DNA from: an uncultured Chloroflexia bacterium
GTDB taxonomy: Bacteria > Chloroflexota > Limnocylindria > QHBO01
Direction of reading: 5' to 3'
NCBI GenBank assembly: GCA_963695195.1
Contig: CAVOGE010000007.1
Coordinates: 408,494-472,493, forward strand
DNA: 64,000 nucleotides
The position numbers were made by a program, and so were the translations under genes. Below, in pieces: positions 3,608 through 24,704 of the stretch. Under the pieces are notes generated by a model. The model was not told where the DNA came from. It was given only the letters and a program-made list of their open reading frames with translations, and made no database searches. The number at the start of each line of letters is the position of its first letter. The stretch's first letter is position 1.

Positions 3608-3774
3608 TCGGAGAGGCCGACGGTCAGGCCGAGGCTGGATGGCTCCATCTCGAAGGACCGCGGACGCTCGAGGTGTGCCGGCCGACTACACCGTACCCTG
3701 ACCGCCGCGGCGAAGGCGCGGAATTGGGACGCGGCCTTCGGGGCCGCCGTCGTCCGCGTGGACGAAGGTCAGTC

Positions 3775-3851: not shown

Positions 3852-3910
3852 ACCGGCCATCACGAGGGGATGGGAGCCGAAGTCTACCAGCCGACCGTAC
3901 ACTGCGCCGC

Positions 3911-5706: not shown

Positions 5707-5729
5707 CGGGGCTCATCGGCGCCGACCGC

Positions 5730-5850
5730 CACGGGGTGGCTACAACGGCCACCTTTGGGCTGAGCTTGGTCCCTGGACGGCCGATTGGCCACCCGAGGGC
5801 TCCCCGTGGCCACGCAGAGCGGTCATCTTGGCCGTTGTAGCCACCCCGTG
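5730..5850. repeat. perfect 22-bp inverted repeat pair (5730-5751 / 5829-5850) flanking a 77-bp spacer; MITE-like or structured regulatory element
   Basis: CACGGGGTGGCTACAACGGCCA is exactly reverse-complemented by TGGCCGTTGTAGCCACCCCGTG. An inner GGCCAC...GTGGCC hairpin lies in the spacer. Confidence 0.6.
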
Positions 5851-6033
5851 ATTGCGGGCTCGGGGCCACGCCGGGTTGCGTCCACCTCCGACCGGGACGC
5901 TCGACATCGTGATCGGCGGGCAAACGAAAGCCCCGGAGGAACCGCGGCGACCGTTGATGTGATCTCCAGTCGGCCAGCTGCCCCTCCGGGACGAGAGAAG
6001 CATGCCGCGCGGGGGATGCGGCCACAAGAGTGG

Positions 6034-6073
6034 TTATCCACAATCGATTGGACCGATCCCCGAGTTATCCACA
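6034..6073 (+). promoter_or_regulatory. two direct GTTATCCACA boxes (DnaA-box consensus TTATCCACA) 31 bp apart upstream of the cupredoxin gene
   Basis: Exact 9-mer TTATCCACA at 6034-6042 and 6065-6073. An AT-rich 10-mer recurring exactly in a 70% GC background is unlikely by chance. Confidence 0.35.
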
Positions 6074-6144
6074 GGGAATCCGCAGGCGTGCAGCCGCGCG
6101 CTCCACTGCTAGCATCCGCACGGCTGACAGGAAGGAGCCGAGGC

Positions 6145-6666
6145 ATGAGACAGGAAGGTCAGTTCACTCGCACCACGGGACGCCATGCCATTGCGGTCGG
6201 CGTCCTGCTTGCCGCCTCGTTGGTGCTGGCGGTGGCAGCCGGTCCGGCCCGCGCCGCCGATGCGGAGTGGGTGGACATCGTCGACTTCGCTTTCAGCCCC
6301 GCAACGATCACCATCAGCGTTGGCGACACGGTCACCTGGACGAATCGCGACAGCGTGGAGCACACCGCGACGGGCGCGGCCGGCGCGCCACAGCCCTTCG
6401 ACACCGGACTGCTTGGGACCGATCGGGGCGGGTCCGTCACCTTCACGGCTCCGGGCCGGTACGACTACTTCTGCGCCCCGCACCCGACAATGACGGGGAC
6501 CGTCGTGGTCGAACCGGCCGGGGCAGTACAGGTGCCAAACGCGGCATTGCCGCAGCCCCCTGGCGCCGGCGGAGCCGGTACCTACCGTGGGGTCGGCGTG
6601 CTGCTCGTGCTGACGCTGGTTGCGGCGGGGACCGTGGCTGTCCGACGCAGAGGTCGCGCCGGCTAG
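6145..6666 (+). CDS. cupredoxin (plastocyanin/pseudoazurin-like type-1 blue copper protein) with C-terminal membrane anchor
   Basis: GAAGGAG RBS before the ATG at 6145. Signal peptide present. Type-1 copper ligand pattern VEHTATG...YDYFCAPHPTMTG (His, Cys, His, Met). Hydrophobic C-terminal tail. Confidence 0.85.
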   Translation: MRQEGQFTRTTGRHAIAVGVLLAASLVLAVAAGPARAADAEWVDIVDFAFSPATITISVGDTVTWTNRDSVEHTATGAAGAPQPFDTGLLGTDRGGSVTFTAPGRYDYFCAPHPTMTGTVVVEPAGAVQVPNAALPQPPGAGGAGTYRGVGVLLVLTLVAAGTVAVRRRGRAG

Positions 6667-6667
6667 C

Positions 6668-9348: not shown

Positions 9349-9567
9349 ATGGGCAGGCGACTCCGCGACACCTCCCTGACCCTCCGTATCGACCCCGACG
9401 TGGTGCTGTGGGCACGCATGCGCGCTCTTCGCTCGGGCACGAGCGTGAACCAGATGGTGCGACAGTTCCTGGAGGAGTACGCAGCCGTGCCGTCGGGCTT
9501 CTGGGAGGGTCTGCCGCCGCCGTGGGATTCCAGTGAGCAGTCGGCTTCGGCGGCTTCGCCTGACTAG
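9349..9567 (+). CDS. small ribbon-helix-helix (CopG/Arc-like) DNA-binding protein, possible orphan antitoxin-type regulator
   Basis: SLTLRIDPDVVLWARMRALRSGTSVNQMVRQFLEEYA has a beta-strand followed by two helices, the RHH pattern. No toxin partner is visible. Confidence 0.35.
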   Translation: MGRRLRDTSLTLRIDPDVVLWARMRALRSGTSVNQMVRQFLEEYAAVPSGFWEGLPPPWDSSEQSASAASPD

Positions 9568-9596
9568 GACGGCGTCGGCCTGGCCCACCGGCCCTC

Positions 9597-9790
9597 GTCA
9601 GGGGCATTCATGCACCCGTGCAGTCGTGCAGTCGTGCTGCACGAACGGTCCTGACAGTGGCGCCAGGGCGACACCGCCGGCCCGCCGGCTTCTGTCAGGG
9701 GCATTCATGCACCCGTGCAGTCGTGCAGTCGTCCTGCACGAACGGTCCTGACAGTGGCGGGGGCTACCGCCGCCGGCCCGCCAGCCGGCT
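9597..9790. repeat. tandem duplication (2 x 97 bp, ~90% identical) of a nested-palindrome element at the convergent RHH/serA junction
   Basis: Unit 1 spans 9597-9693 and unit 2 spans 9694-9790. Each unit holds GTCAGG...CCTGAC around an inner CGTGCAG...CTGCACG palindrome. Unit 2 ends at the serA stop codon. Confidence 0.7.
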
Positions 9791-11387
9791 ACAGCGCCGG
9801 CAGCTGCACCACGCGCACGCGGATCATGCCGGGCACGGATGCCAGTCGCTCGAGCAGCGCACCCGACACGTCCTGGTCGACGCTGACGAACATCAGCGCC
9901 TCGCCGGCGGGCGACAGCCGCGACAGCTCGAGCGACGAGATGTTGACGCGCGCCTCGGCCAACGCGCTGCCAACGGCACCCACGATCCCCGGCTGGTCAT
10001 GGTGACGGGTGATCAGGATGGTGCCGGCCAGATCGGCATCAGTCTCGAAGCCGTCCAGGCTCGCCAGCCGCGGACGCCCGCGGGAGGTGGAGCCGGCCAA
10101 TCGCACGGCGCCCTTCCCCTCGCCGAGTTCGAGGGTGAGGAGCGAGGACCACGGGTCGGCGACATCGGTGCGGTTCTCGTGGACGGTGAGGCCGCGCTCA
10201 GCGGCGACGAGGTCGGCGTTGACCGCGTTGACCCGCTGATCGGTGATCGGCTCGAGCAGGCCGGCCAGCACCGCGGTGCGCATCGGGGTGCCGTCCCAGG
10301 CGGAGATCTCGCCCGCATAGGTCAGCGTAAGGGTGTCTGCGGGCGCCGGCACGAGTTGCCTGCCCAGGATCGCCAGTCGGCGGGCGAGCTCGACGAATGG
10401 ACGCAGCTGCGGGGCAACGCCAGCCGCGACCGGCGGGGCGTTCACCGCGTACGGCGGCGTCACGCCGGAGAGGGCAAGCAGCACCTGCTCCGCCACCTCC
10501 AGGCCGGCGCGTGCCTGGGCTTCCGCCGTGGACGCGCCCAGGTGCGGGGTCAGCACCGTGTTCGGCGCGCTGCGGAGGGGGTTGTCGGGAGCCATCGGTT
10601 CGGCCGAGTAGACATCGACGGCCGCGCCCGCCAAGCGTCCCTCGTGCAGCGCTTCCGCCAGGGCATCCTCGTCGACCAGTCCGCCCCGAGCCACGTTCAG
10701 CAGGACGGTGCCGGACTTCATGGTCGCGAACTGCGCACGACCGATGAGTCCGCGCGTCTCCGGCGACAGCAGCACGTGGACGGTAACCACGTCCGATGCC
10801 GCCAGCAGCTCCGGCAGACCGACGAGCGTCACGCCCTGCTCTGCCGCTTGCTCCGCGGTGAGAAAGGGGTCGTAGGCGATCACCTGCATCTCGAACGCCG
10901 CAGCTCGCCGCGCGACCGCCTTCCCGATCTTCCCCAGGCCGATAACGCCGAGCGTCTTCCCCCGCAGTTCGGCGCCGATGTAGGTGGCCCGCTCCCACTC
11001 ACCGCGACGGACCGATGCGTCCGCCGTCGGGATGCGCCGCATGAGCGAGAGCATGAGCGCCATGGTGTGCTCGGCCGCCGCAGTGGTGCTTCCGGTCGGG
11101 GCGTTGACCACCATCACGCCGGCGTGGGTGGCGGCGTCCAGGTCGACGCGGTCGGTGCCAACCGATCCCACGCCGACCACCGACAGGCGGGGCGCGGCGG
11201 CCGCCAGCAGCTCCGCGTCCACACGCGTCTGGGAGCGAACGATCAGCGCGTCCCAGCCACCCCCCTCGGATAGCGCCGCGAGCAGCTCAGCGCGGGGCGG
11301 GCGGTTGCGGAACGACGTCTCGTGCGCGGCGGTGAGCAGGTCGATGCCGGCCTGCGCGATCGGCTCGGCAACCAGGATGCGGGGCAT
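9789..11387 (-). CDS. serA: D-3-phosphoglycerate dehydrogenase (long form with ASB and ACT domains)
   Basis: 532 aa. NAD-binding GVIGLGKIGKAVARR. Catalytic region LLNVARGGLVDEDAL...TPHLGASTAEAQ. C-terminal ACT domain (ILITRHHDQPGIVGAVGSALAEARVNIS). Confidence 0.95.
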   Translation of the reverse strand: MPRILVAEPIAQAGIDLLTAAHETSFRNRPPRAELLAALSEGGGWDALIVRSQTRVDAELLAAAAPRLSVVGVGSVGTDRVDLDAATHAGVMVVNAPTGSTTAAAEHTMALMLSLMRRIPTADASVRRGEWERATYIGAELRGKTLGVIGLGKIGKAVARRAAAFEMQVIAYDPFLTAEQAAEQGVTLVGLPELLAASDVVTVHVLLSPETRGLIGRAQFATMKSGTVLLNVARGGLVDEDALAEALHEGRLAGAAVDVYSAEPMAPDNPLRSAPNTVLTPHLGASTAEAQARAGLEVAEQVLLALSGVTPPYAVNAPPVAAGVAPQLRPFVELARRLAILGRQLVPAPADTLTLTYAGEISAWDGTPMRTAVLAGLLEPITDQRVNAVNADLVAAERGLTVHENRTDVADPWSSLLTLELGEGKGAVRLAGSTSRGRPRLASLDGFETDADLAGTILITRHHDQPGIVGAVGSALAEARVNISSLELSRLSPAGEALMFVSVDQDVSGALLERLASVPGMIRVRVVQLPAL

Positions 11388-11418
11388 GCTCCGAGTCTAG
11401 CGGCCCGGTGCGGGGAAC

Positions 11419-12177
11419 CTATGGCGCCCCAACGTAAGTCACCGTGACCTTGACGACCCGCAGGTCGATGCCAGCGGAGCCAGTGAGGGAGCAACGGGCT
11501 TGGTAGGCGTAGATGGCATTGTCGATGGGCGGGCCGCTGATCGTGGTGTCGACGAGCGTGGTGTAGCCGGGGGTGGCGGCTCCTCCGGAGCTCGGGGTGG
11601 AGGCCAGACCTGCCACGACGCCGTCTGACGTGACCCGCTGGAGACTGCACAATGTCCCGTAGGTGGCGGTGTTGTCGTACACGTCGCCCGCGAAGGCGGT
11701 GAGGGTGGCGCCATCGGGCAGGTGCACCGCGCAGGTCAGGGAGTCGATGCCAGAGGTCAGGTAGCGCTCGGCGAAGGTGCCGCCCAGGTAGCCGGTCGTG
11801 CTCATTGTGGGTGCCATGTCGTTGCCGGCGCAGCTGTAGTGCTGGGTCTGGTCCTTGCGCGCAAACTGGGACGAATCGATCCCATCGAGCTTGTCGGCGT
11901 TGACCACCGGGGTCTTGCCCGCAGCCAGCGCACCCAGCCGGTTCATGAAGGCCGCCATCTCGGCGCGGGTCACGTTGCGATCCGGACAGTACTTGCCGCC
12001 ACCACAGCCACTGGTCACCCCGGCATTGGTGATGGCCGCGATGTCAGCGTGGAACGGGTTGGAGTTGGGCACATCGCTGTACTGGTGGCTGGCCAACACG
12101 CCGAGCGGGAAGGCGACCAGGGTCAGGCTCAGGGCCAGTACCGCGACCGCACGACGAGACGAGATGGATCGACGCAT
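11419..12177 (-). CDS. secreted SLH-like domain protein (single N-terminal SLH, variable C-terminal domain)
   Basis: Signal peptide, then YSDVPNSNPFHADIAAITNAGVTSGCGGGKYCPDRNVTRAEMAAFMNRLGA, which matches the SLH pattern (F.D..., I..L...GI..G, VTRAEMA, F..RL). Paralog of 14115..14912. Confidence 0.75.
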   Translation of the reverse strand: MRRSISSRRAVAVLALSLTLVAFPLGVLASHQYSDVPNSNPFHADIAAITNAGVTSGCGGGKYCPDRNVTRAEMAAFMNRLGALAAGKTPVVNADKLDGIDSSQFARKDQTQHYSCAGNDMAPTMSTTGYLGGTFAERYLTSGIDSLTCAVHLPDGATLTAFAGDVYDNTATYGTLCSLQRVTSDGVVAGLASTPSSGGAATPGYTTLVDTTISGPPIDNAIYAYQARCSLTGSAGIDLRVVKVTVTYVGAP

Positions 12178-12282
12178 TCGGACACTCCGCAGTCCGGACA
12201 GGCGCGGGCCGTCGTGGCGATCAGCCGATGGTGACGTCAGGCCGGGATCGTGAGCGTCATTGTGGGGCCCGGGTCAACGTGG

Positions 12283-13989
12283 TCATAGCGCCCGATGCAG
12301 GAAGGCCGCCATCTGCTCGCGGGTGACGTTGCCCAGCGGGCAGTACAGGCCCGGCCCACAGCCGGAGGTGATGCCAGCTGCGCGGAAGGCGTTGATATCC
12401 GCTTCGTGGACGCTCGTCTCGTCATCGCTGAAGTAGTCGGTGGCAGTCGGCGGGAGGTCCATGGCGCGCACCAGGAATGAGGCCATCTGGGCACGGGAGA
12501 CGTTCGCCAGCGGGCAATACAGTCCGTCGCCGCAGCCGGTGGTGATCCCGGCGTCCGCCAGCGCGTTGATATCGGCCTCGTGGATGCTGGTCTCGTCATC
12601 GGGGAAGTAGTCGGTAGCGGTGGGTGGCAGCTTCAGGGCGCGCACCAGGAACGAGGCCATCTGGGCGCGGGAGACATTGGCCAGCGGGCAATAGTAGCCC
12701 CCGCCGCAGCCGGTGGTGATGCCGGCGTAGTAGAGCCAGTTGATGTCGTCGAGGAACGGCGAGGTGGTGACGTCGCCGAACGGCGGCGCCACGACGCGGT
12801 AGAGCGCGCCACCCAGGTGCGTGGCGTACAACTCGCCGCCCTCGCTCTCGCCGAACGAGCTGATGTTGAGCGACACCTGGCGGCGCTCTGTCGCCGCACT
12901 GCCACCGACCGGGATGGTCCACAGGCGTCCCGAGCAGTAGTCGGCGAAGACGTACTCGCCGAGCAGGTCCGGCTGCGTCGTTCCGCGGTACACGAAGCCG
13001 CCGGTCACCGAGCATCCGAGGCTGTGGCTGTACTCGGCGATCGGCAGCGTCAGCCCGGACTGGTTGCACGAGCCCGACGCGTAGCAGTGCGCGCCCTCCA
13101 TGACGTTCCAGCCATAGTTACGCCCGCCGGGATCGGCGAGCGCTTCTCGGTCGATCTCCTCCCAGCTGCCCTGGCCGACATCGCCGATCCACAGTGCCCC
13201 GGTCGATCGGTCGAAGCTGAAGCGCCAAGGGTTTCGGAGGCCGGAGGCCCAGATCTCCTCGAGCTCGGGGCCGCCGACGAATGGGTTGGTTGCCGGGATG
13301 GCGTACGTGCCGAAGGTGCCGTCACCGGAGCCGTCGACGTCGATGCGGAGGATCTTGCCCAGCAGCGTGGCCGTCGACTGCCCGTTGTCATCCGGGTCGC
13401 CACTGCCCCCGCCATCGCCGGTGCCGATGTACAGGTAGCTGTCAGAGCGAAAGGCGAGCTGTCCGCCGTTGTGGTTGCTGTTGGCGCTGTGCTCAATCCG
13501 CATGAGGAACTGCTCCGTCGCGCTGCTCGCCGCGGCAAGCCCGATGTTCGCCGTAAAGCGCGAGACGACCAGGTCGCCATCGGCCCTGGTGTAGTACACG
13601 TAGAAGAACCGGTTCGTCGTGAAGTCCGGATGGAAGGCAAGCCCCAGCAGGCCGCGCTCACCGCCCGCCAGGACGCGGTGGGTGATGTCGAGGAACGACC
13701 CGGCCTGCACTTTGCCGTTGAGCACCACCCGGATCCGGCCAGGGCGCTCCACCACGAAGAGGCGACCCGATCCGTCGCCCGCGTTGGTGACCGCGACCGG
13801 CGATGAGAGGCCTGTGGTGACCAGCTGCAGGTCGAGCTGATTCGCCGCCAGCGCCACCGGGGCGGCGGCGGCGATCGCGGGCTGCGGCTCCGGACGGGCT
13901 GCGACCGCCGGTGGCGTGGCCATCACAAGACCCAACAGCGCGAGCCCGATTGCAGCTTGCGAGCCGGGGCGACTGCCAGTGGGTCTCAT
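12283..13989 (-). CDS. PQQ-dependent soluble sugar (glucose/sorbosone) dehydrogenase beta-propeller fused to three C-terminal SLH-like repeats
   Basis: GSDH-family motifs NHNGGQLAFRSDSYLYIGTGDGGGSGDP and GLRNPWRFSFD. Three repeats of ...GITTGCG.G.YCPLANVSRAQMASFLVRAL at the C-terminus. Signal peptide present. Confidence 0.85.
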   Translation of the reverse strand: MRPTGSRPGSQAAIGLALLGLVMATPPAVAARPEPQPAIAAAAPVALAANQLDLQLVTTGLSSPVAVTNAGDGSGRLFVVERPGRIRVVLNGKVQAGSFLDITHRVLAGGERGLLGLAFHPDFTTNRFFYVYYTRADGDLVVSRFTANIGLAAASSATEQFLMRIEHSANSNHNGGQLAFRSDSYLYIGTGDGGGSGDPDDNGQSTATLLGKILRIDVDGSGDGTFGTYAIPATNPFVGGPELEEIWASGLRNPWRFSFDRSTGALWIGDVGQGSWEEIDREALADPGGRNYGWNVMEGAHCYASGSCNQSGLTLPIAEYSHSLGCSVTGGFVYRGTTQPDLLGEYVFADYCSGRLWTIPVGGSAATERRQVSLNISSFGESEGGELYATHLGGALYRVVAPPFGDVTTSPFLDDINWLYYAGITTGCGGGYYCPLANVSRAQMASFLVRALKLPPTATDYFPDDETSIHEADINALADAGITTGCGDGLYCPLANVSRAQMASFLVRAMDLPPTATDYFSDDETSVHEADINAFRAAGITSGCGPGLYCPLGNVTREQMAAFLHRAL

Positions 13990-14059
13990 GGGGCGCCCAC
14001 TCTACATCCGGGTTGCCAGTTGAAAGGGTCGAGGATGCGGGGGATGCAGCCGATCATCG

Positions 14060-14094
14060 AGAAGGAGCGCCCCCGCGTCGGGAGCGCTCCTTCT
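14060..14094 (-). terminator. stem-loop (11-bp perfect stem, 13-nt loop) immediately downstream of SLH gene 14115..14912
   Basis: AGAAGGAGCGC-ccccgcgtcggga-GCGCTCCTTCT. No U-tract follows, which is usual at this GC content. Confidence 0.4.
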
Positions 14095-14114
14095 CATCGG
14101 GAACCAAAGGCAGC

Positions 14115-14912
14115 CTAGGGCGCCTCTTTCACCGGCTTGGAGGCATCGTGCGGACTCAGGATGATCAGGCACGACAGGAACGGGGTGTTCCCCGCGCCGT
14201 CAAACGGAATGTACTCGACCATCAGGCTCGACTGGAGGATGTTCAGGTCGGCCCCGATGCTCCCGAACTCGAAGTCGACGGTGTAGGTCGCAGCGTCGCA
14301 CACCCGGTAGCCACCGGACGAGTTGCACGTCGTCTCATCCAGGACGGCGCCGCCGGAGACCCACTGGGTATCGACCCATCGATTCGAGCCCGACACCGCA
14401 CTGTTGTCGACCTCGAGCCAGCAGTTGGCGTCGTCGGTTCCGCCGGACGTTTCGTTATAGACGTACGACGTCCCGGTGATCATCAGGTACCCCCAGCCCG
14501 GGGTCGTGATGGTCGTCGTCAAGCGACCGCTGGAAGCCGCATCGCCGTCAACGGTGGTGGTGTTGTTGCTGGTGTAGGCGAGGCGGTTGAGCTCGTTGGC
14601 ACTCCAGCCATCGACCTTGGTGGCATTGACCACCGGGGTCTTGTTCGACGCCAGCGCACCCAGCCGGTTCATGAAGGCGGCCATCTCGGCGCGGGTCACG
14701 TTGCGATCAGGACAGTAGTTGCCGCCACCACAGCCGGATGTCACGCCGGCATTGGTGATGGCCGTGATGTCCCCGTGGAACGGGTTGCTGTCGGGGACGT
14801 CGCCGTACTGGTGGGTCGCCAGGGCCCCCAGCGGGAAGGCGACCAGGGCGACCACCATCGCGAGCGCGGCCAGGGCGCGCGGTCGGCGGCGGGATGGTCG
14901 GGGATCGGGCAT
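14115..14912 (-). CDS. secreted SLH-like domain protein, paralog of 11419..12177 with a different Ser/Thr/Gly-rich C-terminal domain
   Basis: AAGGAGGA RBS before the ATG at 14912. The first ~95 aa are near-identical to the paralog (YGDVPDSNPFHGDITAITNAGVTSGCGGGNYCPDRNVTRAEMAAFMNRLGALA). The C-terminus is unrelated. Confidence 0.75.
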   Translation of the reverse strand: MPDPRPSRRRPRALAALAMVVALVAFPLGALATHQYGDVPDSNPFHGDITAITNAGVTSGCGGGNYCPDRNVTRAEMAAFMNRLGALASNKTPVVNATKVDGWSANELNRLAYTSNNTTTVDGDAASSGRLTTTITTPGWGYLMITGTSYVYNETSGGTDDANCWLEVDNSAVSGSNRWVDTQWVSGGAVLDETTCNSSGGYRVCDAATYTVDFEFGSIGADLNILQSSLMVEYIPFDGAGNTPFLSCLIILSPHDASKPVKEAP

Positions 14913-14984
14913 CGCTGAAATCTCCTCCTTCGTCCGGGCGGCTTGCTGCTTCGCGCAGCGGAGTTGCATCGTATCGTGGCGGGC

Positions 14985-16403
14985 ATGCACGAAGCACCCT
15001 TCTCGCGCAGGTTCCCTGTCCGTGTACTACCGCGCTCCGCGCTGGTGCTGCTCCTCGCCGCGATGGCCGCCGTCGCCGTCGGCGATCTACTCGAGGTCGT
15101 GGCACGGCTGCGCATGGGCCTGGACGCCAGCGTAGGAGGGGGAGGACTCGCATTGACGCTGGCGGCCGTGCTGGCCTCGGCGCTGCTGATCCTGTGGCTC
15201 ACGCGGCGTCCCGTGCGGGATCGTCTCGACCCCGCCGCCCTGCTGGTTGGCCTGGGGCTGTTGCTTGCATTGAGAGTCGTGGCGGTGCTCCTCGTGGACG
15301 CACCCCTGATCGTGGATTGGCGCCGTTATCACGAGCTGGCAGTCAGCATCTCGCAGGGCGGCGACTGGTTCGCCAGTCGACCGAGCGGCTACGCGCTGCT
15401 AGTCAGCGTCGGTTACCGGGTCTTCGGCCCGAGCCCTGCGGTTGGCGAGTGGCTGAACGTGGGGCTTGGATTGGCGAGCGGCCTGCTCATCTACGCTGTG
15501 GCACTGCGAGCGGCGGGGTCCCGTGCGGCAGGCGTGGCCCTGCTGCTGTACGCCGTCGCCCCAGCCGAGATCCTGATGACCCCCGTCCTGGGCACCGAAA
15601 TCGCATACGGAACCGTCCTCGTCGGCGTCGCCTGGGTGCTCCTGGCCGCTCCACTCTCCGTCGTCCGAGCCGCCGTCGCCGGCGCGGCGCTCGGTGCCTC
15701 CCAGTACGTGCGCGCCACAAGCCAGGTGCTGGCACCCGTTCTGGCGATCGGGGCCGGGTGGCTGGCAGCCCCGGGCCGGCGCCTGCTGATCGGCCTTGCC
15801 TTCGCGGCGTCATTCGCCGCCGTGCTCCCACCCGTGGTCGTGACCAACATGGAGCGCGGCTCGGGTCCTTCTCTCTCGACCTCGTCGTTTTCGGCGTGGC
15901 AGCTGCTGATCGGCACCAACCAGGAGCACGACGGGCGCTTCAACCCGGACGACGTTGCGCTGGTGGGCGGAGAAGCGGCCCTGGGGACGGCGGAGGCCGA
16001 GCGCATCGCGCTGAGAGTTGCCCTGGAGAGGATCGGCGAGGACCCGGTCGGCACGCTCGGCCTGGTTGTGCGCAAGTTCCCCGTCGTGTGGGGTGACGCC
16101 CACTACGGCGCTCGCTGGGCGCTGTACGAAGACCCGGCCCAGGAGCCACAGACGACGCAGGCGTTCGTGCTGCTCAGTCAGCTCGCCTGGGCGGTGGTCG
16201 CGGCACTCGCCGCGGTGGGTGCCTGGCGCGGACGCGCCGGCTCGGCGCAGACAGTGGCGCTGCTGGGTGCGATCCTTGCCGTCTTCGTGCTGGTCCATGC
16301 CCTCGGCGAGGCGAATCCCCGCTACCACGCACCGCTGGTGCCGATCTTCAGCGTGCTGGCCGGTATCGGCGCGGCCAACTTGCTGGCGAACCGGGAGAGT
16401 TAG
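14985..16403 (+). CDS. GT-C membrane glycosyltransferase, PMT/ArnT-like (GT39/GT83 family)
   Basis: Multi-TM protein with the first-loop DxxRYxExA motif (DWRRYHELAVSISQG) typical of polyprenyl-P-sugar-dependent PMT/ArnT transferases. The 3' end overlaps the SLH beta-helix gene by 4 nt. Confidence 0.7.
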   Translation: MHEAPFSRRFPVRVLPRSALVLLLAAMAAVAVGDLLEVVARLRMGLDASVGGGGLALTLAAVLASALLILWLTRRPVRDRLDPAALLVGLGLLLALRVVAVLLVDAPLIVDWRRYHELAVSISQGGDWFASRPSGYALLVSVGYRVFGPSPAVGEWLNVGLGLASGLLIYAVALRAAGSRAAGVALLLYAVAPAEILMTPVLGTEIAYGTVLVGVAWVLLAAPLSVVRAAVAGAALGASQYVRATSQVLAPVLAIGAGWLAAPGRRLLIGLAFAASFAAVLPPVVVTNMERGSGPSLSTSSFSAWQLLIGTNQEHDGRFNPDDVALVGGEAALGTAEAERIALRVALERIGEDPVGTLGLVVRKFPVVWGDAHYGARWALYEDPAQEPQTTQAFVLLSQLAWAVVAALAAVGAWRGRAGSAQTVALLGAILAVFVLVHALGEANPRYHAPLVPIFSVLAGIGAANLLANRES

Positions 16404-18649
16404 CGGAAGGCGCGGTGCAGGAAGGCGGCCATCTGGCCACGGGTGACCAGCCCCTTGGGGCAGTAGGTCGTGGCCGTGCAGCCACTGGTGATGCCCGCCG
16501 CTGCGATGGCGTTGATCGCCGCCTGGTGGATGCTCGCGGAGTCATCGGTGAAGAAGTCAGTGGCCGACGGTGGCAGATGCAATGCCCGGGCGAGGAATGA
16601 GGCCATCTGCTCTCGGGTGACCGATGCGGTCGGGCAGTAGAGGCGCGTCCCGCAGCCGCTGGCGACGCCGGCCGCGGCGACGCGGTTGATATCGGCCTCG
16701 AACATGGATCCGTCGTCGTCATCGAAGGCGTCGGGCGCGCTTCCTGCCAGGCCGAGCGCCCGCGACAGGAATGCTGCCATCTGCCCGCGCGAGACCACCG
16801 CGTCCGGGCAGTATCGGTCTGGCGCGCACCCGCTGGTGATGCCGGCGTCGGCGATCCAGATGATGTCGTCCCGGAAGATCGAGTTGGCGATGTCGATGAA
16901 TCCGTCCGCCCATTTGGCGCCAACCGGGGTCCCACCAACGCCTGCGGAGTACTGGAACGAGTTGCTGCCCACGGTCAGGAAGCCAGGATCGGAGGTGAGC
17001 GTGCTCAGGTAGCCAGGCGGCTGGTAGTTCACGGCGGTGGCGCTCGGGCTGCCGAGCAGGTCCGCGCCGGTGTTGCCGTACAGGCCGCTGTGGTCGAGTG
17101 TCGCCGAGTTGCCGGTCACCAGCCAGACGCCGTAGCCACGGTTGCCGGTGACGAGCGTGTGGTTGATGGTGATGCTCGACGGCGCGACCTGGTAGCCGCC
17201 GATCTTGACCCCTTCGGCCCGGTTCCACCAGATCGTGTCGTGGTCGAGCGTCTTGTTGCTCGTCCCACGATCGACCATGACGCCGATCCCGTTGTCCCAG
17301 TACAGATTCCGTGACGACGTGAGGCGGCCGGCGCCGGAACCGTTGTATCCGTCGAACAGGTACAGGCCGAATCGACGGTTTCCCCAGACCTCGTTGCGCT
17401 CGACCAGCGTGTCCTGCACCGCCGGCATGCTCGATGCCTCCTGGGTGACATGGACCCCGACATCGTTGCCCCAGATGCGGTTTTCGCTCACCGTGGTGGT
17501 GCGCGCGCCATTGGCCACCGTGATCCCCGACGCGTTGTTGTAGGCGCTGCCGGTCGGATTGAAGTCCTGGTCGTGGAGGTCGTTGCGGCAGACGAGGTTG
17601 CCGCTGGTCGTACCCGTGTAACTGCTTCCCGAGACGGGGCCCTGCACCTTGATCCCCTGGAGCCCGTTGTCGTGGACGTCGTTGTCGCAGACGGTGGCGC
17701 CGGTGGTGCCCTCGTCGAGCTTGATCGCCTGGAGCGTGTTGAAGGCAGCCTCGTTGCGCTGGATGAGTGCACCGGTCGCAGGGTCAGCGCCCGAGCCTGT
17801 CTGCTCGCCGGAAACGGCCACCCCCATGTACAGGTTGCCGATCAGCCGGTTGTCGGATGCCTCGCCGTTATCGACCCCCTTGGCGAAGGCGATCCCATTG
17901 GCCGAGTGCCGGACCTCGAAGCCGCGCACCGCGACGTTATTGACGGGGTAGCGGCCGTCGAAGTAGAAGGCGTTGCGCACGATGACATCGATCCGATGGC
18001 TTCCCGGATTCGCGGCGGGCACGGTCGAGAGATACAGCTGCTTGGCCGCCGAATCCCACCAGTAGCCGCCGAGGCCGCTCGCCGCCCGGGAATTCAGCGC
18101 GGACAGGCTGGTCTGCTCCCAGAGCCAGGTCGTCTCGTCCTGGAAGACGGCCGTCTTGATCGAGCCGCTCGAGGTCGGGAAGCCGAACGGCGCAGTCGTC
18201 CAGGGCGTCTTCCAGACACCAGCCGTTCCGGTCGAGGACCAGCTCTTGCCGGGTGCCGGGGCGGCATCGGCGCCGGACACGACCGGCCGCGTGTATCCGC
18301 TGCTGGTGCCGTTGTAGCCGTATGCCTCGAATGCAATCGGCGCACTCACGCTGCCATACCGGTCCCAACTGGGCGGCACGGGTCGCTCGCGGTAGACGTA
18401 GTCGGCATAGCCGACAACCTGGATCGTCCAGCCGGCGGCAGACCCCGCCGGCAGGCTGCTGGCGGCTTTGCTGATCGTCTTGAAGGCCGATCCCAGGCTC
18501 GTCCCGGCGTCGCTGTCACTGCCGGTCTTGCCGTCCACGTAGAAGGTGCCGCCGGCAGCTGCGGCCGCGGGGGGCGGTGCAACCGCAAGCAGCGTCGCCA
18601 TCAGCGCGACGGCGGAGAGCAGGGAGACACAACGGCGAACGGCAGCCAT
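16400..18649 (-). CDS. secreted right-handed parallel beta-helix (pectate-lyase-like, PbH1 repeats) protein with three C-terminal SLH-like repeats
   Basis: Signal peptide. Repeated N.(V/I)W.N..G... beta-helix rungs (NRIWGNDVGVHV, NEVWGNRRFGLYL, NLYWDNGIGVMV, TIWWNRAEGVKI). C-terminal 3x ...AGITSGC....YCP..VTR.QMA.FL.RA. Confidence 0.8.
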   Translation of the reverse strand: MAAVRRCVSLLSAVALMATLLAVAPPPAAAAAGGTFYVDGKTGSDSDAGTSLGSAFKTISKAASSLPAGSAAGWTIQVVGYADYVYRERPVPPSWDRYGSVSAPIAFEAYGYNGTSSGYTRPVVSGADAAPAPGKSWSSTGTAGVWKTPWTTAPFGFPTSSGSIKTAVFQDETTWLWEQTSLSALNSRAASGLGGYWWDSAAKQLYLSTVPAANPGSHRIDVIVRNAFYFDGRYPVNNVAVRGFEVRHSANGIAFAKGVDNGEASDNRLIGNLYMGVAVSGEQTGSGADPATGALIQRNEAAFNTLQAIKLDEGTTGATVCDNDVHDNGLQGIKVQGPVSGSSYTGTTSGNLVCRNDLHDQDFNPTGSAYNNASGITVANGARTTTVSENRIWGNDVGVHVTQEASSMPAVQDTLVERNEVWGNRRFGLYLFDGYNGSGAGRLTSSRNLYWDNGIGVMVDRGTSNKTLDHDTIWWNRAEGVKIGGYQVAPSSITINHTLVTGNRGYGVWLVTGNSATLDHSGLYGNTGADLLGSPSATAVNYQPPGYLSTLTSDPGFLTVGSNSFQYSAGVGGTPVGAKWADGFIDIANSIFRDDIIWIADAGITSGCAPDRYCPDAVVSRGQMAAFLSRALGLAGSAPDAFDDDDGSMFEADINRVAAAGVASGCGTRLYCPTASVTREQMASFLARALHLPPSATDFFTDDSASIHQAAINAIAAAGITSGCTATTYCPKGLVTRGQMAAFLHRAFR

Positions 18650-19988: not shown

Positions 19989-21110
19989 ATGACCGACTCA
20001 GCCCCACACCCCATCGCGGTCTTCTTCGGGACGCGACCGGAGGTCATCAAGCTGGCACCGGTGATCCTCGAACTCCGCGCGCGGAAGGCGCCGACCGTGG
20101 TAGTGACCACTGGGCAGCACCGCGAGCTGGTCGATGACCTCCTCGACCTGTTTGGGATCAGCGTGGACGAGGACCTGAACCTGATGCGGCCTCGCCAGTC
20201 GATCGACCACGTGCTGGCCGGTGCGGTGACCGGGATCGGTCGCGCGCTGGAGCGATACACACCGCGCGCCGTCATCGTCCAGGGCGATACGACGAGCGCA
20301 CTCGGCGCCGCGCTCTCCGCGTTCCACCGCCACCTCCCGCTCGCCCACGTGGAGGCCGGCCTCCGATCGAATGACCTGGCCCTCCCGTTCCCCGAGGAGT
20401 TCAACCGGCGGGTGACGAGCCTTGTGGCGAGGTGGCATTTCGCACCGACCGATGCGGCAGCCGAGAACCTGCGACGCGACGGCGTCGGAGGCGAAATCTG
20501 CGTGACCGGCAACACCGTGGTGGATGCGCTGCGCCTGATCGAGGGGCGCGGCGTCCCGATGTCACAGGGAGCGGCGGACTTCATCGGCGACGCCCCCTTG
20601 CTGTTGGCGACGGCTCATCGCCGAGAGTCGTGGGCACGCGGCATTGCGGCCATCGCCGGTGCGCTCGCTGACGTGCTCGACGCGACGCCGGACTTGCGCC
20701 TCGTCTTCGTGACGCATCCAAACCCGGTCGCCCGCCGGCCGGTCGAACAGGCACTCGGGCATCACGATCGGGCGATGGTCGTTGATGCGGTCGCCTACTC
20801 GGAATTCATCGCCCTGCTGCGACGAGCAACCCTGATCGTCAGTGATTCTGGCGGCGTGCAGGAGGAAGGGCCGACGCTCGGCATCCCCGTCCTGGTTACC
20901 CGCGCTGTCACCGAGCGGCCCGAAGGGCTGGATGCGGGAGCGGTGCGGCTGGTCGGCACCGATCGGGCCACGATTCGCGACACGACGCTGGCGCTGCTGG
21001 GCAACCCCGCGGCGCGCGCCGAGATGTCGAATGCCGGCCGTACCGTCTATGGCGATGGCCACGCGGCCGAACGCATCGTCGACGTCCTGCTGGGCAAGGC
21101 GGCGTGCTGA
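19989..21110 (+). CDS. wecB: UDP-N-acetylglucosamine 2-epimerase (non-hydrolysing)
   Basis: [43 protein letters not shown] and the C-terminal YGDGHAAERIVDVL are all hallmarks of the WecB/MnaA family. Confidence 0.9.
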   Translation: MTDSAPHPIAVFFGTRPEVIKLAPVILELRARKAPTVVVTTGQHRELVDDLLDLFGISVDEDLNLMRPRQSIDHVLAGAVTGIGRALERYTPRAVIVQGDTTSALGAALSAFHRHLPLAHVEAGLRSNDLALPFPEEFNRRVTSLVARWHFAPTDAAAENLRRDGVGGEICVTGNTVVDALRLIEGRGVPMSQGAADFIGDAPLLLATAHRRESWARGIAAIAGALADVLDATPDLRLVFVTHPNPVARRPVEQALGHHDRAMVVDAVAYSEFIALLRRATLIVSDSGGVQEEGPTLGIPVLVTRAVTERPEGLDAGAVRLVGTDRATIRDTTLALLGNPAARAEMSNAGRTVYGDGHAAERIVDVLLGKAAC

Positions 21111-22471
21111 ACGAGCCGGCTGAGGGCGATGCACGGGACGCCGAACGCGCCGAGGTCCGCTCGTTCGGGGGTGCGGTCGTCCAGCTGACGGTGGTCCGCA
21201 TCGGTTCGGTGGTTGCCGGATTTCTGGCGAGCGTGCTCGCCGCACGCCTGATCGGTGCCGACGGTCTCGGGCTTGCCGGATCGGCGTTCACCATTGCCAC
21301 CGCCGGTGCGTTGCTGTCCAGCGGCGGACTGAACATCGCGGCCATCTACTTCCTCGGCCGCCGGCCCGGCGAACAGGGGCAGGTCGTCGCACGCACGCTC
21401 ACGCTTGGTGTGGGGGCAGCGGTGCTGGCGGTCCTGGTCGTGCTGGGCGCAGGGCTGGCGTTGCGCACGGTCGTCCTCGGCGAAGCGGACGGCACCGTAT
21501 TGCTGGCTGCCGCCGCACTGGCGGCCACGATCCTGACGTTCGAGCTGATCGGTGGGCTCCTGCTCGGCCTTCATCGTCGCACCGCGTACATCGTGGTCCA
21601 GGCGACCGAGGCGATCGGGTCACTGGCGCTGACCGCATTACTGCTGCTCATCGTGGATCGCTCCGCGGCGAGTTATCTCGCCGCGGCGGCACTCGGCTAC
21701 GCCGGCGGCGCACTGATCGCCTGGGTGGCGATACGCCGTCACGTGGGGCCCATCCGTCCTGACTTCGCGCCCGCCTTCGCGCGGGAGGCGCTGGGCATGG
21801 GTTTGCGCGGACAGGTTGGCAACATCCTCCAGTACCTCAGCCTGCGGCTCGATCTCGTGCTCGTCGCCGCCCTCCTCGACCTGCGAGCGGCGGGGATCTA
21901 CTTCGTCGCGGTGCGCGTCAGCGAGGTGGTGACCCAGGTCGCAACCTCGGCGTCCGCATTCCTCTTCCCGCAGGTGGCGGCGCAGACCGAGCGCCGCTCG
22001 ACGCGCGTCACCGAACAGATCACGCGCCTGACGCTGGTGACGGTGGTGGCCGGCGGACTCATCCTCGCGGCCGTGGCTGAGCCGCTGCTGCGTCTCGCCT
22101 TCGGCGATGAGTTCGCGACCGGCGCCGACGCCGTGCGGATTACGCTGCTCGCCATGCTGCCGTTGACACTCACCCGTCTGATCGCCGGCGATCTGAAGGG
22201 CCGCGGCCGACCCGGACTCGTTTCGTGGGCCGCCTTCGTCGGCCTGGTCGCCACCGTGTCGCTCGACCTCGTCCTCATCCCACGGCTGGGAATCGTCGGC
22301 GCGGCGCTTGCCTCCCTGCTCAGCTACGCGGCCGGCGCCGCGTTCATGCTCGGTGCCTACCGCCGCCTGACCGGTTCACGGATCGGCGCCCTGGTGCCGC
22401 GCCTCGGCGACCTGCGGGTGCTGGTCGATCTGGCCTGGGCCGGCGGGCGTCGTCGAGGTGACTCCCGTTGA
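21104..22471 (+). CDS. oligosaccharide flippase (Wzx/MOP superfamily; CsaA-like)
   Basis: 455 aa, about 12-14 TM helices, polysaccharide-biosynthesis-protein topology. Overlaps wecB by 7 nt and csaB by 4 nt. Confidence 0.8.
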   Translation: MLNEPAEGDARDAERAEVRSFGGAVVQLTVVRIGSVVAGFLASVLAARLIGADGLGLAGSAFTIATAGALLSSGGLNIAAIYFLGRRPGEQGQVVARTLTLGVGAAVLAVLVVLGAGLALRTVVLGEADGTVLLAAAALAATILTFELIGGLLLGLHRRTAYIVVQATEAIGSLALTALLLLIVDRSAASYLAAAALGYAGGALIAWVAIRRHVGPIRPDFAPAFAREALGMGLRGQVGNILQYLSLRLDLVLVAALLDLRAAGIYFVAVRVSEVVTQVATSASAFLFPQVAAQTERRSTRVTEQITRLTLVTVVAGGLILAAVAEPLLRLAFGDEFATGADAVRITLLAMLPLTLTRLIAGDLKGRGRPGLVSWAAFVGLVATVSLDLVLIPRLGIVGAALASLLSYAAGAAFMLGAYRRLTGSRIGALVPRLGDLRVLVDLAWAGGRRRGDSR

Positions 22472-23535
22472 ACGGGCGGGTGCGAGCTGTCGCGCTCGGC
22501 TACCAGGGTTTCGGCAACGTCGGCGACGAGGCCATCCTGGCGGGCATCGAGGAGCTCCTCAGCGACAGCCACGTGGAGGTCGTGGCGGTGGTGGGCGGTC
22601 ATGAGCAGATCCCGGCGTACCCTGCGGCTCGCCGCATCGCGACGCGCCGGATGCGCCCGAACCTCGCTTCACTCCGCGCGCTCAGTCGTGCCCGACTCCT
22701 GCTGGTGAGCGGTGGCGGGCTGCTGCACGACCACTGGGTCACCGTGGTGCCGACCTATCTCGCCTGGATGCTCCTGGCCCGCCTGACGGGGACACGTGTC
22801 GTATGGGTCGGCGTGGGCGTCGGGCCGCTCGACCGACCGATACTGAGGCGCATGGCCGGCTGGGCGCTCCGGCTTGCCGCATGCGTGACGGTGCGAGATC
22901 CCGAATCGGCACTGCTCGTGGCCAGGATCGCACCACGCGTGAAGGTGACCGTCGTCCCGGATCCTGCGCTGCTCATGGCCCCGCCTGCGGCTCGACCGAG
23001 GAGCGGGATCGGCTTCGTGGTGCGCGGGCCGACTCCCGGGCGCGACGGCGAAAGCGACGAGATGATTGGTGGCCTCGCCAGGGCCGCAGCGAACGCGGGA
23101 AAGGGCGATGTCCGTCTGCTCACGTTTGGCGGCCCGCGGGATCGCGCCTTCGCCGACGCGGTTCGAGGACTGGCGGCGCAGGACGGCAGCACCCTGCCGA
23201 TCGAGGAGCTCGGCCCTGACCCGCGCCAGGCGCTGGAGGTGCTGGCTGGGCTGCAAGCGGTCGTAACCGTGCGACTGCATGGTCTCCTGCTGGCGGCGCT
23301 CGCGGGCACCCCGGCGGTCCCGATCGCCTATGACGACAAGGTCGCGAGCATGGCCCGCCACCTGGGCCTCCACGAAGCCTGCCAGCCAGTCACGGGACTC
23401 ACCGGGCACGGCATCACTGCCGCGCTTGCCTCCGTCCAGACCGAAAAGCAACGAGAACTGGTGGCAGGTCGCTTGATCGAGATCCGATCGAACGCTGCCT
23501 TGCTCCGGCGCCTGATCGAGGCGGCAGCCCAGTGA
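22468..23535 (+). CDS. csaB: polysaccharide pyruvyl transferase (PF04230; CsaB family)
   Basis: N-terminus LGYQGFGNVGDEAILAGI matches the CsaB start (GYYGF.N.GDEAIL). Size is 355 aa. Sits directly after wecB and the flippase, as in the Bacillus csaAB arrangement. Confidence 0.8.
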   Translation: MNGRVRAVALGYQGFGNVGDEAILAGIEELLSDSHVEVVAVVGGHEQIPAYPAARRIATRRMRPNLASLRALSRARLLLVSGGGLLHDHWVTVVPTYLAWMLLARLTGTRVVWVGVGVGPLDRPILRRMAGWALRLAACVTVRDPESALLVARIAPRVKVTVVPDPALLMAPPAARPRSGIGFVVRGPTPGRDGESDEMIGGLARAAANAGKGDVRLLTFGGPRDRAFADAVRGLAAQDGSTLPIEELGPDPRQALEVLAGLQAVVTVRLHGLLLAALAGTPAVPIAYDDKVASMARHLGLHEACQPVTGLTGHGITAALASVQTEKQRELVAGRLIEIRSNAALLRRLIEAAAQ

Positions 23536-24704
23536 CGGACGCATCCGCGACACTGCCCACCCGTGTGGACGTGCTGCTGGCGGTCGGCTATGACCCGGAC
23601 GTTCGCGTGCGACGCATCACGCAGGCACTCGCCGGCGCCGGGTGCCGGGTGAGGATCCTGGCCTGGGATCGTGACGGCACGCGCCCCACGGCCGAGGGCG
23701 ATGGGCCAGTCAGTGTCAGGAGGGTTTCAGTGAGAAGTCGCTGGGGTCGCGGCTGGACGCAGGTCTTCGCCCTTCCCCGGCTCTTCATCCGCTACCTCGC
23801 CGCCGTGCGCCGCCGCCGACCGGACGTGCTGCACGCCGTCGACCTGCCGATGCTCGTTGCGGCCGTGCTGATCGCCCCCTTCGCCGGGCGTCCGCGAATC
23901 GTGTATGACGCCTTCGAGGTGTATCGGTTGATGGTCAGCCACCGGCTGCCGACCCCGATCCTGTGGGCGATCGGCCTGCTCGAGCGGCGGCTGCCGCGCC
24001 GGGCTCAGCTGGTGGTTACTCCGGGCGAGCGCCGACGCGCGTACTTCGCCAGGCTCGGCGTCAGTTCGATCTCGATCCCCAACTGGGTCGATCCGCCCCC
24101 AGTCCGACCGGATCGCGCCGCAGCCCGCGGTGATCTGCAGATCCCGCCAGACACCTTCTGCGTGGCCTACGCGGGCGCGCTCAACGAGGCCCGTGACGTC
24201 GACGCCCTGCTGCGCCACGCTCGGCGCAGGCCGGACCACCTGGTGATCATCGCCGGGACCGGGGAAGACGAGCCGCGTCTCCGGACCATGGCTGCGGACC
24301 TGCCGAACGTGCGCCTGGCCGGCTGGCTGGCCGACCCGTCGGGCCTGCTTGCCGCGGCGGATGCGATGTACTACGCGCTGCGGCCAGACCACCCGTATGC
24401 GGCACTGGCGGCGCCGAACAACCTGTACGTCGCCATCGCGCACCAGGTCCCGCTGGCGTATCGCGCGCAGGGTGAACTCGCCGAGGTCGGCGAGCAGCAC
24501 GAGATCGGGGTGCCATTCAGCGACGACGAGTCACTTGATGCCGCCCTCGACCAGCTGGCCGACCCGCAGGTCAATGGTCGCGTCCGCGGCAGCCTGGCAG
24601 AGCTCGGCGAGAGCTACCGCTGGGAGATCGCCGCCGAGCGGCTGGTCCGCGTGTACCCGATGAACGGGAGCGCCGCGAGCAGCGCCACGCCGAAGGGACC
24701 GTAG
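23532..24704 (+). CDS. glycosyltransferase family 4
   Basis: ATGA overlap with csaB. GT-B architecture with a C-terminal E-x7-E-like region. Confidence 0.7.
   Translation: MTDASATLPTRVDVLLAVGYDPDVRVRRITQALAGAGCRVRILAWDRDGTRPTAEGDGPVSVRRVSVRSRWGRGWTQVFALPRLFIRYLAAVRRRRPDVLHAVDLPMLVAAVLIAPFAGRPRIVYDAFEVYRLMVSHRLPTPILWAIGLLERRLPRRAQLVVTPGERRRAYFARLGVSSISIPNWVDPPPVRPDRAAARGDLQIPPDTFCVAYAGALNEARDVDALLRHARRRPDHLVIIAGTGEDEPRLRTMAADLPNVRLAGWLADPSGLLAAADAMYYALRPDHPYAALAAPNNLYVAIAHQVPLAYRAQGELAEVGEQHEIGVPFSDDESLDAALDQLADPQVNGRVRGSLAELGESYRWEIAAERLVRVYPMNGSAASSATPKGP

Follow-up and report, generated by a model that had tools for sequence, protein, structure and literature searches.

Introduction

Anchoring of surface proteins through S-layer homology (SLH) domains is known mainly from proteins with three tandem repeats and, lately, from the porins OmpM and SlpA, which have one repeat per chain. 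In established SLH systems the ligand is a wall polymer whose pyruvylation depends on CsaB. The envelope of Chloroflexota is poorly known. Here we describe two genes, A and B, in a 64,000-nt stretch (hereafter the window; positions 408,494 to 472,493 of contig CAVOGE010000007.1, assembly GCA_963695195.1) from an uncultured Chloroflexia bacterium of the GTDB lineage Limnocylindria. Each encodes a small, predicted secreted protein in which a single SLH domain stands in front of a C-terminal head, and the two heads are unrelated in sequence.

In OmpM, each chain contributes one SLH domain, and the domains of three chains come together as a single unit that binds the wall through three equivalent sites (PMC10628300). 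The products of genes A and B resemble OmpM of Veillonella and other diderm Terrabacteria, and SlpA of Deinococcus and Thermus, in having a single N-terminal SLH domain per chain. They differ in what comes after this domain: a long coiled-coil stalk and then an outer-membrane β-barrel in OmpM and SlpA, but in A and B a neck within ~25 residues of the SLH domain that leads to a soluble jelly-roll head. No barrel is present in A and B, and their trimer is a proposed one. With the classical SLH proteins (Sap and EA1 of B. anthracis, SbsB, and SpaA of P. alvei) they share a Pfam SLH domain, the TRAE motif, adjoining csaB-type and epimerase genes, and the use of one anchor type for many functional domains. 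Unlike those proteins, they have one N-terminal repeat instead of three, a cysteine pair (GCGGGxYCP), and a length of only ~250 aa.

Fiber proteins offer further parallels. The tail fibers of phages (T4 gp34; PDB 5NXF, 5NXH) have a neck motif like that of A and B, (D/N)xDxLDGxDS(S/T)QFxR(K/R)D, and TNF-like or jelly-roll C-terminal knobs, with tips that are swapped at conserved joints. Unlike phage fibers, A and B lack a shaft and a domain for attachment to virion or baseplate, do not lie in a phage context, and carry instead a signal peptide and an anchor predicted to hold them to their own cell wall. Bacterial C1q/TNF-like trimers, namely BclA and ExsFA of the Bacillus exosporium, Chlamydia Pgp3, and a Photorhabdus TNF-like lectin, were also compared with A and B, which are unlike the BclA/ExsFA group in lacking a collagen-like stalk, in having an SLH anchor rather than attaching to exosporium basal-layer proteins, and in showing no sequence similarity. 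The mosaic adhesive trimer (MAT) proteins of Bdellovibrio are a chimeric fiber family but, unlike A and B, form long fibers of a Gram-negative predator, have no SLH anchor, and act in prey recognition (PMC10769870).

The explanation that we consider best, with a probability of roughly 0.7 for the whole of it, is that A and B belong to a modular, recombining family and act as secreted homotrimers in which each chain uses one SLH domain to anchor an exchangeable lectin-like head. Each chain has four modules: a signal peptide, one SLH domain, a neck of the form (V)VNAxxLDGxDSxQF, and an exchangeable β-jelly-roll head of ~150 aa. Once exported, the chains would assemble in identical threes through the head and the gp34-like neck; three single SLH domains would then equal the canonical wall-binding unit of three SLH domains, in the manner of OmpM and SlpA, and the cell wall would display the head as a knob of lectin-like or adhesin-like kind. 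The anchor, constrained to the lineage's own wall polymer, would be under strong purifying selection, and gene conversion or recombination among paralogs would keep anchors alike within a lineage while heads diversify and are swapped.

The individual parts of this scheme are already known: CsaB-linked SLH anchoring, single-SLH trimers, TNF/C1q-like knobs, chimeric fibers, and modular tail fibers. What seems new is the combination of a single SLH domain, a tail-fiber neck, and a swappable head in small soluble Chloroflexota proteins, which we did not find in the literature searched.

Results and Discussion

Genes A and B share an anchor module and diverge beyond it

Gene A (11419..12177) and gene B (14115..14912) are open reading frames (ORFs) on the minus strand, spaced 1.9 kb apart, with predicted secreted single-SLH products of 252 and 265 aa, respectively. 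The product of gene A (P0185) is 99% identical to P0001, and its exact sequence is present in the database on a 1,867,267-nt NCBI/ENA contig; the product of gene B equals P0067, with 100% identity across 265 aa. Gene B is best read as starting at an ATG at 14912, with a ribosome-binding site (AAGGAGGAG) 8 nt upstream, which yields the 265-aa form. The exact match of P0067 to this form makes a longer, GTG-started ORF that reaches 14990 unlikely. Both genes occur in identical arrangement in an independent ENA assembly (L002), which rules out an assembly artifact.

A direct-repeat search identified a gap-free block of 241 nt, 87% identical, at 11882..12122 in gene A and 14608..14848 in gene B. 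It is the sole repeat longer than 100 nt at ≥85% identity across the whole window. The block is in frame in both genes (codons 19-99 of A and 22-102 of B, ~243 nt) and contains the end of the signal peptide (LVAFPLGxLA), the single SLH domain, and the joint KTPVVNAxK(L/V)DG. The two proteins are identical at 67 of 85 positions over the block (79%; BLASTP E = 2e-48) and at 89% of positions over the 64 aa of the SLH core. Their DNA is 86.8% identical over 228 nt, 80% identical at third codon positions, and ~95% identical over the 87 nt that encode GCGGG...NRLGALA (counted from the codon table).

The original prediction, made from the letters of the window, had described a ~90% identical 5′ module of 277-287 nt and near-identity over the first ~95 aa of the two proteins. 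Pairwise nucleotide and protein alignment does recover a near-identical block (87% of DNA, 79% of protein over 85 aa), and the likeness of the SLH domain and joint stands; the size and the identity have to be reduced to ~243 nt and 87%, and the signal-peptide n-region and part of the h-region, which take up the N-terminal 18 aa in A and 21 aa in B, are unlike. The likeness is not confined to the signal peptide or to low-complexity sequence: the block spans the SLH domain, which is not of low complexity.

The putative signal peptide of A (12091..12177, minus strand; aa 1-29, MRRSISSRRAVAVLALSLTLVAFPLGVLA followed by SHQ) has a basic n-region, a hydrophobic core, and a VLA↓S cleavage-type site, and AlphaFold2 places a helix at residues 8-30; its last 11 residues alone fall inside the shared block. 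The putative signal peptide of B (14817..14912, minus strand; aa 1-32, MPDPRPSRRRPRALAALAMVVALVAFPLGALA followed by THQ) recurs unchanged in P0074, a protein of a related contig, L001. The SLH domains follow at 11953..12081 in A (aa 33-75; Pfam PF00395, E = 5.5e-7, 29.9 bits) and at 14679..14807 in B (aa 36-78; E = 4.8e-6, 26.9 bits), both on the minus strand and both above the cutoff of 20.8 bits. Pfam recognizes one SLH stretch in A, one in B, and three in each of two neighboring proteins. Both domains read VTRAEMAAF at the TRAE motif and carry the cysteine pair GCGGGxYCP (GCGGGKYCP in A), an unusual feature. Searched against PDB, a profile of the family of A matched Sap, SbsB, and the entries 8bys, 8bz2, and 8bym ('S-layer homology domain-containing protein'), the last three of which we take to be OmpM.

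Is the shared block more alike than selection on the protein would make it? At identical, degenerate amino acid positions the same codon is used in 52 of 67 cases, against 34.4 ± 3.8 expected from the codon usage of the window (z = 4.7). Run against six neighboring SLH repeats, the same test gave z values between -0.7 and 0.1 in five cases; the sixth, the third SLH repeat of the intervening GSDH-like (glucose/sorbosone dehydrogenase) gene, gave 2.4. Because the codon excess is this large and the neighbors lie mostly near zero, the DNA likeness of A and B is greater than protein conservation and bias in third-position GC content (GC3) would yield. This bears on the alternative that recombination played no part and that A and B are old paralogs whose 5′ blocks stayed alike through strong purifying selection in a GC-rich, codon-biased genome. 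A GC3 of 85% and a block that is 13% diverged are in keeping with that account, which the codon excess and the near-zero neighbors oppose; moreover, two unrelated folds behind one module need at least one fusion or recombination event.

Past the joint, BLASTP gives no match between A and B, and comparing their C-terminal families profile to profile returns a probability of 1.2%, so that the divergence predicted downstream of KTPVVNA.K.DG holds. The same comparison, finding no homology, led us to reject the idea that the two heads are highly diverged forms of one domain at the sequence level; both are nonetheless jelly rolls.

The joint matches a phage tail-fiber neck

The boundary between anchor and head is marked in A by a tail-fiber-type motif (11851..11916, minus strand; aa 88-109, KTPVVNADKLDGIDSSQFARKD) and in B by a degenerate form of this neck motif (14583..14642, minus strand; aa 91-110, KTPVVNATKVDGWSANELNR). 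The likeness of B to A, and to its ortholog in L001, stops at this junction. When a 38-aa junction peptide was searched by tblastn against a phage collection, 706 records were returned (best E = 0.08), all of a single protein type, gp34 of T4-like phages, which is the proximal subunit of the long tail fiber and in which MNRLGALAAGKTPVVNADKLDGIDSSQFARKD aligns with gp34 MNRALQYFLPAKAKAVDSDLLDGIDSTQFVRRD and the phage sequence reads ...SPYEMNRALQYFLPAKAKAVDSDLLDGIDSTQFVRRD... against ...AEMAAFMNRLGALAAGKTPVVNADKLDGIDSSQFARKD... in the family. The junction of A matches AVDSDLLDGIDSTQFVRRD of T4-like gp34. The A-family profile likewise matched the gp34 fragments 5NXF and 5NXH in PDB at the corresponding residues (E ~0.8), and phrog_972 was matched at positions 884-905 (E = 0.13).

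A degenerate DNA pattern for NADxLDGxD[ST]xQF was then scanned over IMG/VR and gave 39 exact matches, compared with ~0.01-0.1 expected by chance (from ~1e-13 per position and an assumed size of the collection). All 39 loci lie in long open frames with fiber-like repeats; tail-fiber PHROGs were matched in seven of the eight frames sampled, with E values down to 1e-69, and in two loci (L092, L113) the gp34 family aligns at the motif itself. In T4 gp34, a triple-helical neck lies between the α/β repeats (744-877) and the triple β-helix (900-1127) (PMC5537660). These matches indicate that the joint is a genuine phage tail-fiber motif corresponding to the triple-helical neck of gp34, and its structural meaning is likely to be a three-fold neck. 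The resemblance to a tail-fiber motif, tentatively suggested in the original prediction, is borne out by the gp34 matches and by the 39 loci.

A motif of this kind could also mean that A and B are leftover tail-fiber tip genes of a prophage, tailocin, or extracellular contractile injection system (eCIS) rather than host envelope proteins. In addition to the neck motif, this account can draw on the head folds, which are common to phage receptor-binding proteins, gp12, and needle proteins, and on a family member, P0104, that carries the Pfam phage tail Collar domain. We nonetheless give it very little credence. A signal peptide and an SLH wall anchor are both foreign to virion fibers; the scanned flanking genes serve housekeeping or polysaccharide functions and include none for phage structural proteins; synteny is kept in relatives that are 81-93% identical; whole-protein PHROG matches are insignificant (tail-fiber E 0.13-0.27 for A, none for B); and neither the A-type nor the B-type head was found by tblastn in the 2.9 million contigs of IMG/VR.

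One anchor, many heads

Two homolog searches retrieved 183 proteins of ~190-360 aa, most of them 230-270 aa long. The anchor module of 64-65 aa is present in 166 of the 183, in 154 of these 166 without indels, and an alignment of 24 anchor modules has 30 invariant columns. VVNAxxLDG is near-invariant at about residue 90, and most members have either TREQ or TRAE. Beyond the joint, at least 18 C-terminal sequence clusters can be told apart: A-type, B-type, two further large groups, and many singletons. Among these heads, the singleton P0104 matches the phage tail Collar domain with E = 1.4e-14, and the group of P0074 is Lcl_C/DUF1566-like (E = 0.0055). The inference of the original prediction that one anchoring module is joined to differing surface domains is supported by these counts and by the single SLH domain of A and B, and the survey of related genomes that it proposed does bring out further C-terminal cassettes on the same N-terminal module.

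The homologs are named Candidatus Limnocylindria (Chloroflexota) in their source records, where they are annotated as 'S-layer homology domain-containing' or hypothetical and nothing further. At least five members are encoded in the present genome (A, B, P0002, P0011, and P0056), and the database places all five on a contig of 1,867,267 nt. It is highly probable that A and B belong to a large Limnocylindria family of recombining modular secreted envelope proteins. Scanning a genome collection with the anchor profile gave matches of which those listed were mostly generic cysteine-containing SLH repeats from Acidobacteriota, Acidimicrobiia, and others; among the matches listed, ~10 are true family loci, all of them in Chloroflexota/Limnocylindria. 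A 64-aa anchor profile matched 101,139 of 1.84 billion representative sequences, mostly with 3, 6, or 9 repeats, and 134 of the best 150 matches have 3, 6, or 9 SLH stretches, in a ranking that favors multi-repeat proteins; scores in this search add up over repeats, so it yields no usable family count.

The GCGGGxYCP variant of the SLH domain also occurs in metagenome-assembled genomes of Acidobacteriota, Thermoanaerobaculia, Acidimicrobiia, and Gemmatimonadota, at ~45-58% identity to the anchor (loci L013-L082).

A second type of anchor also carries these heads. It consists of an N-terminal membrane helix and a Gly/Ser/Thr/Asn-rich stretch of ~130 aa, has no Pfam match, and is found in front of A-type heads (P0035, P0048, P0050, P0066) and B-type heads (P0136, P0138), and at 4799-5761 of locus L123. 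This anchor ends in ...PLxVNSxxxVxNLNADxLDG, and its joint to the head is the same motif (NLNADLLDG, NLNADLLDGLNSSQFARKD). One second-anchor gene lies within a polysaccharide-biosynthesis locus, not in a prophage.

Evidence for recombination at and around the joint

An exchange at an orthologous position is seen in L001, a 3.2-kb contig from another sample that is collinear with window positions 16447-13224 at ~81% identity. The match covers the membrane-protein gene next to B, the intergenic region, and the signal peptide and SLH domain of B as far as 14602, just past DGWS; there it breaks, resuming at 13871 within the next gene. The product of the L001 gene, P0074, has the exact signal peptide of B but an unrelated, Lcl_C-like head. 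On this comparison, the head has been replaced at the orthologous locus in L001, with the 5′ breakpoint at the joint.

A 12.7-kb contig, L083, holds five single-SLH paralogs whose anchors are identical codon for codon, synonymous sites included. Identity between these paralogs ends sharply and at varied points, with the signal peptide, VVNADKVDG, or ...TVTG as the last identical segment. Such mosaics are the pattern expected from recent gene conversion or unequal exchange.

Other genes of L083 are interspersed with the paralogs (2364-4466, 4573-7791, and 9530-10852) and encode, respectively, an FAD-oxidoreductase with an SLH domain, a 1072-aa protein without a Pfam match, and a 440-aa protein in which weak SLH and GmrSD_C (nuclease-type) matches form an odd combination.

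Across the family, anchors and heads have different affinities. Proteins whose heads are nearest to that of A (57-62% identical) have anchors just 66-69% identical to its anchor; P0002, from the same genome as A, has a head 44% and an anchor 95% identical. The anchor of B is 89% identical to that of A, with unrelated heads, and both anchor subtypes (CPDRNVTRAEM and others) are found with head clusters C01-C05. Anchor similarity therefore tracks the genome and not the head. Within the genome, three of the five paralogs have anchors 88-95% identical, and the two others 72-77%.

Comparison with L002, which shares gene order with the window at a background identity of 86-94%, suggests exchange on a larger scale. 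Gene A differs from its counterpart by 2 mismatches across ~800 nt (11389-12190), and a stretch of 975 nt (13922-14896) that takes in B, the hairpin behind it, and the opening codons of the GSDH-like gene has zero mismatches; both stretches have sharp edges. Because such near-identical, sharp-edged stretches stand out against the background, whole family genes probably moved recently between lineages by homologous recombination.

The original prediction had proposed a substrate for domain shuffling, and this is upheld by the head swap in L001, the mosaic breakpoints in L083, and anchors that resemble one another by genome rather than by head. For A and B themselves, the block does not appear to go back to a recent common source: at third positions they are 80% identical, a figure close to the 78% found when B is compared with the ortholog in L001, a relative of ~81% nucleotide identity. 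Shuffling is shown, by these alignments, on an evolutionary time scale and in relatives; A and B in the present genome are 13% diverged in their shared block.

Strong conservation of the anchor family-wide (154 of 166 without indels, 30 invariant columns), together with an A:B identity that is equal within the window and between it and L002, is what purifying selection without recombination would predict. That account must also accommodate anchors that follow the genome, the replaced head in L001, and the DNA-identical anchors with sharp breakpoints in L083. Taken with the codon excess, these make it an unlikely explanation for A and B, and pure purifying selection is already largely refuted for the family.

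A constant 5′ module in front of variable surface C-termini recalls pilin- or Vsp-type cassettes, and programmed variation through silent cassettes, a diversity-generating retroelement (DGR), or an invertase shufflon might switch the surface head within a population. The C-type-lectin-like fold is often targeted by DGRs; the head of P0074 is Lcl_C/C-type-lectin-like, and L083 has tandem paralogs. Yet A and B are complete genes, each with its own start, ribosome-binding site, and signal peptide, and their shared block is merely 87% identical. Within the 64-kb window, a tblastn search for additional copies, whole or truncated, of the two heads and the anchor found none, and inverted repeats of ≥60 nt are absent. 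The neighboring genes scanned (dehydrogenase, glycosyltransferase, epimerase, and similar) include neither a recombinase nor a reverse transcriptase. With no sign of it in these searches, programmed switching is very improbable.

Predicted heads and their assembly

The heads of A (11422..11850, minus strand; aa 110-252, with 4 conserved cysteines) and B (14118..14582, minus strand; aa 111-265) were modeled by AlphaFold2 with family alignments. The C-terminal domains reached a predicted local distance difference test (pLDDT) score of 93-98, and the SLH part ~55 as a single chain. The best matches of head A in PDB are carbohydrate-binding modules (CBMs; the comparison class is CBM6/22/35/36-like), and its matches in BFVD are phage fiber, spike, and collagen-like proteins. 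The model thus suggests a CBM-like or fiber-knob-like jelly roll for A. Head B is predicted to adopt a TNF/C1q-like fold, a superposable jelly roll, and has no match in Pfam (C1q/TNF), in PHROG, or among PDB sequence profiles.

By analogy with the solved structures, we judge homotrimeric assembly to be slightly favored over other states; any particular ligand for the heads would be a weaker claim still. The same modular proteins might act as monomers, or paralogs might co-assemble into mixed hetero-oligomers, three-SLH units bearing up to three different heads. Anchors that are 88-95% identical in three of the five paralogs of this genome are what co-assembly would select for, and monomers would suit both the CBM matches of head A and an SLH part of low confidence as a monomer. 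The TNF/C1q-type heads and gp34-type necks are, however, homotrimeric in all of the solved examples matched, and the anchors of the two other paralogs are only 72-77% identical, so that neither monomers nor mixed assemblies seem probable.

Several observations weigh against our preferred explanation of homotrimers with recombining heads. Trimerization is proposed by analogy of fold and neck, structure prediction was made for monomers only, and the SLH pLDDT of ~55 is compatible with trimerization and is no evidence for it; the best PDB matches of head A, the CBMs, are usually monomeric, and the A/B family has no OmpM-like coiled-coil stalk. Wall binding and the ligands of SLH domain and head are predicted only. 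All single matches to gp34 are weak (E 0.08-0.9), and the B junction NATKVDGWSANEL is a degenerate form of the motif that A carries exactly as NADxLDGxDSxQF. Direct phage origin of the heads is unsupported because tblastn did not find them in IMG/VR. Finally, A:B identity is 86.8% within this genome and 86.8-87.3% across the window and L002. As the within- and cross-genome identities are equal, we rejected a recent conversion of A by B or of B by A in this genome; for the same reason no A/B conversion tract can be demonstrated, and there appears to have been no such event since the split from the L002 lineage.

A bolder and more doubtful proposal is that these proteins form a previously undescribed class of envelope proteins, host-encoded and SLH-anchored 'tail-fiber tips', in which a phage-type neck would zip three chains together and display rapidly exchanged trimeric receptor-binding heads. 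Anchors would then evolve in concert with the wall polymer, and paralogs, strains, and the second, membrane-anchored stalk family would trade heads with one another. Were this so, the repertoire could serve cell-cell or particle recognition, or the heads could mimic or compete with phage receptor-binding proteins and so shield the wall polymer, a likely target of phages of these bacteria, or act there as decoys. Such mimicry would be relevant to how phages recognize their hosts among the abundant uncultured bacteria of freshwater and soil.

With homotrimers of the kind we favor, the principle of one anchor built from three chains would hold for displayed adhesins too, and in Chloroflexota. The family is also a clean natural case of modular evolution, with one module uniform per lineage and the other swapped at a phage-fiber-type joint, and joint and anchor could help surface-display engineering. 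No long-standing question is answered by these findings.

Genomic neighborhood

Genes A and B are separated by a gene for a GSDH-like protein (12283..13989, minus strand; Pfam GSDH, E = 2.4e-43) with three C-terminal SLH repeats. A second three-repeat protein, with a right-handed β-helix (16400..18649, minus strand; Pfam Beta_helix and SLH), lies upstream of B. The SLH repeats of these two genes have a period of 174 nt and are 64-76% identical in DNA within and between both genes. Divergent from B is a gene (14943..16403, plus strand) for a polytopic membrane protein of 486 aa, without a Pfam match and syntenic in L001 and L002; its product could be a wall-polymer ligase or polymerase. It is the most diverged gene of the locus (86% identity to L002).

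A polysaccharide locus assigned by Pfam follows on the plus strand (19989..24704). It encodes a UDP-GlcNAc 2-epimerase of the ManNAc-epimerase type (19989-21110; Epimerase_2, E = 1.6e-92), a Wzx-type flippase (21104-22471; Polysacc_synt), a CsaB-type polysaccharide pyruvyl transferase (22468-23535; PS_pyruv_trans, E = 1.2e-29), and a GT4 glycosyltransferase (23532-24704). This locus would be the expected source of the SLH ligand. The context fits the predicted wall anchoring, because a CsaB-type locus adjoins the SLH genes and pyruvylated polymer is the SLH ligand.

Scans for promoters and terminators and against Rfam gave nothing meaningful save a hairpin after B (14059..14095, minus strand), a perfect, GC-rich stem of 17 bp without a U tract, ~20 nt past the stop codon. 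It folds with -46.4 kcal/mol over a 91-nt stretch (z = -3.8), shows up as spurious palindromic (miRNA) Rfam matches on both strands, and probably serves as a transcript end or stabilizer. Gene A is without such a hairpin; serA begins 31 nt after it, and the two may be co-transcribed.

Two further repeats were seen in the window. An 81-nt direct repeat (9582-9662 and 9679-9759; 93% identical, 97 nt from start to start) contains GTGCAGTCGTGCAGTCGTGCTGCAC, overlaps the 5′ end of the longest metallo-β-lactamase-fold ORF, extends into the gap before serA, and has no Rfam match. A pair of 77-nt segments (3775-3851 and 50742-50818), 77% identical, look like minus-strand tRNA genes.

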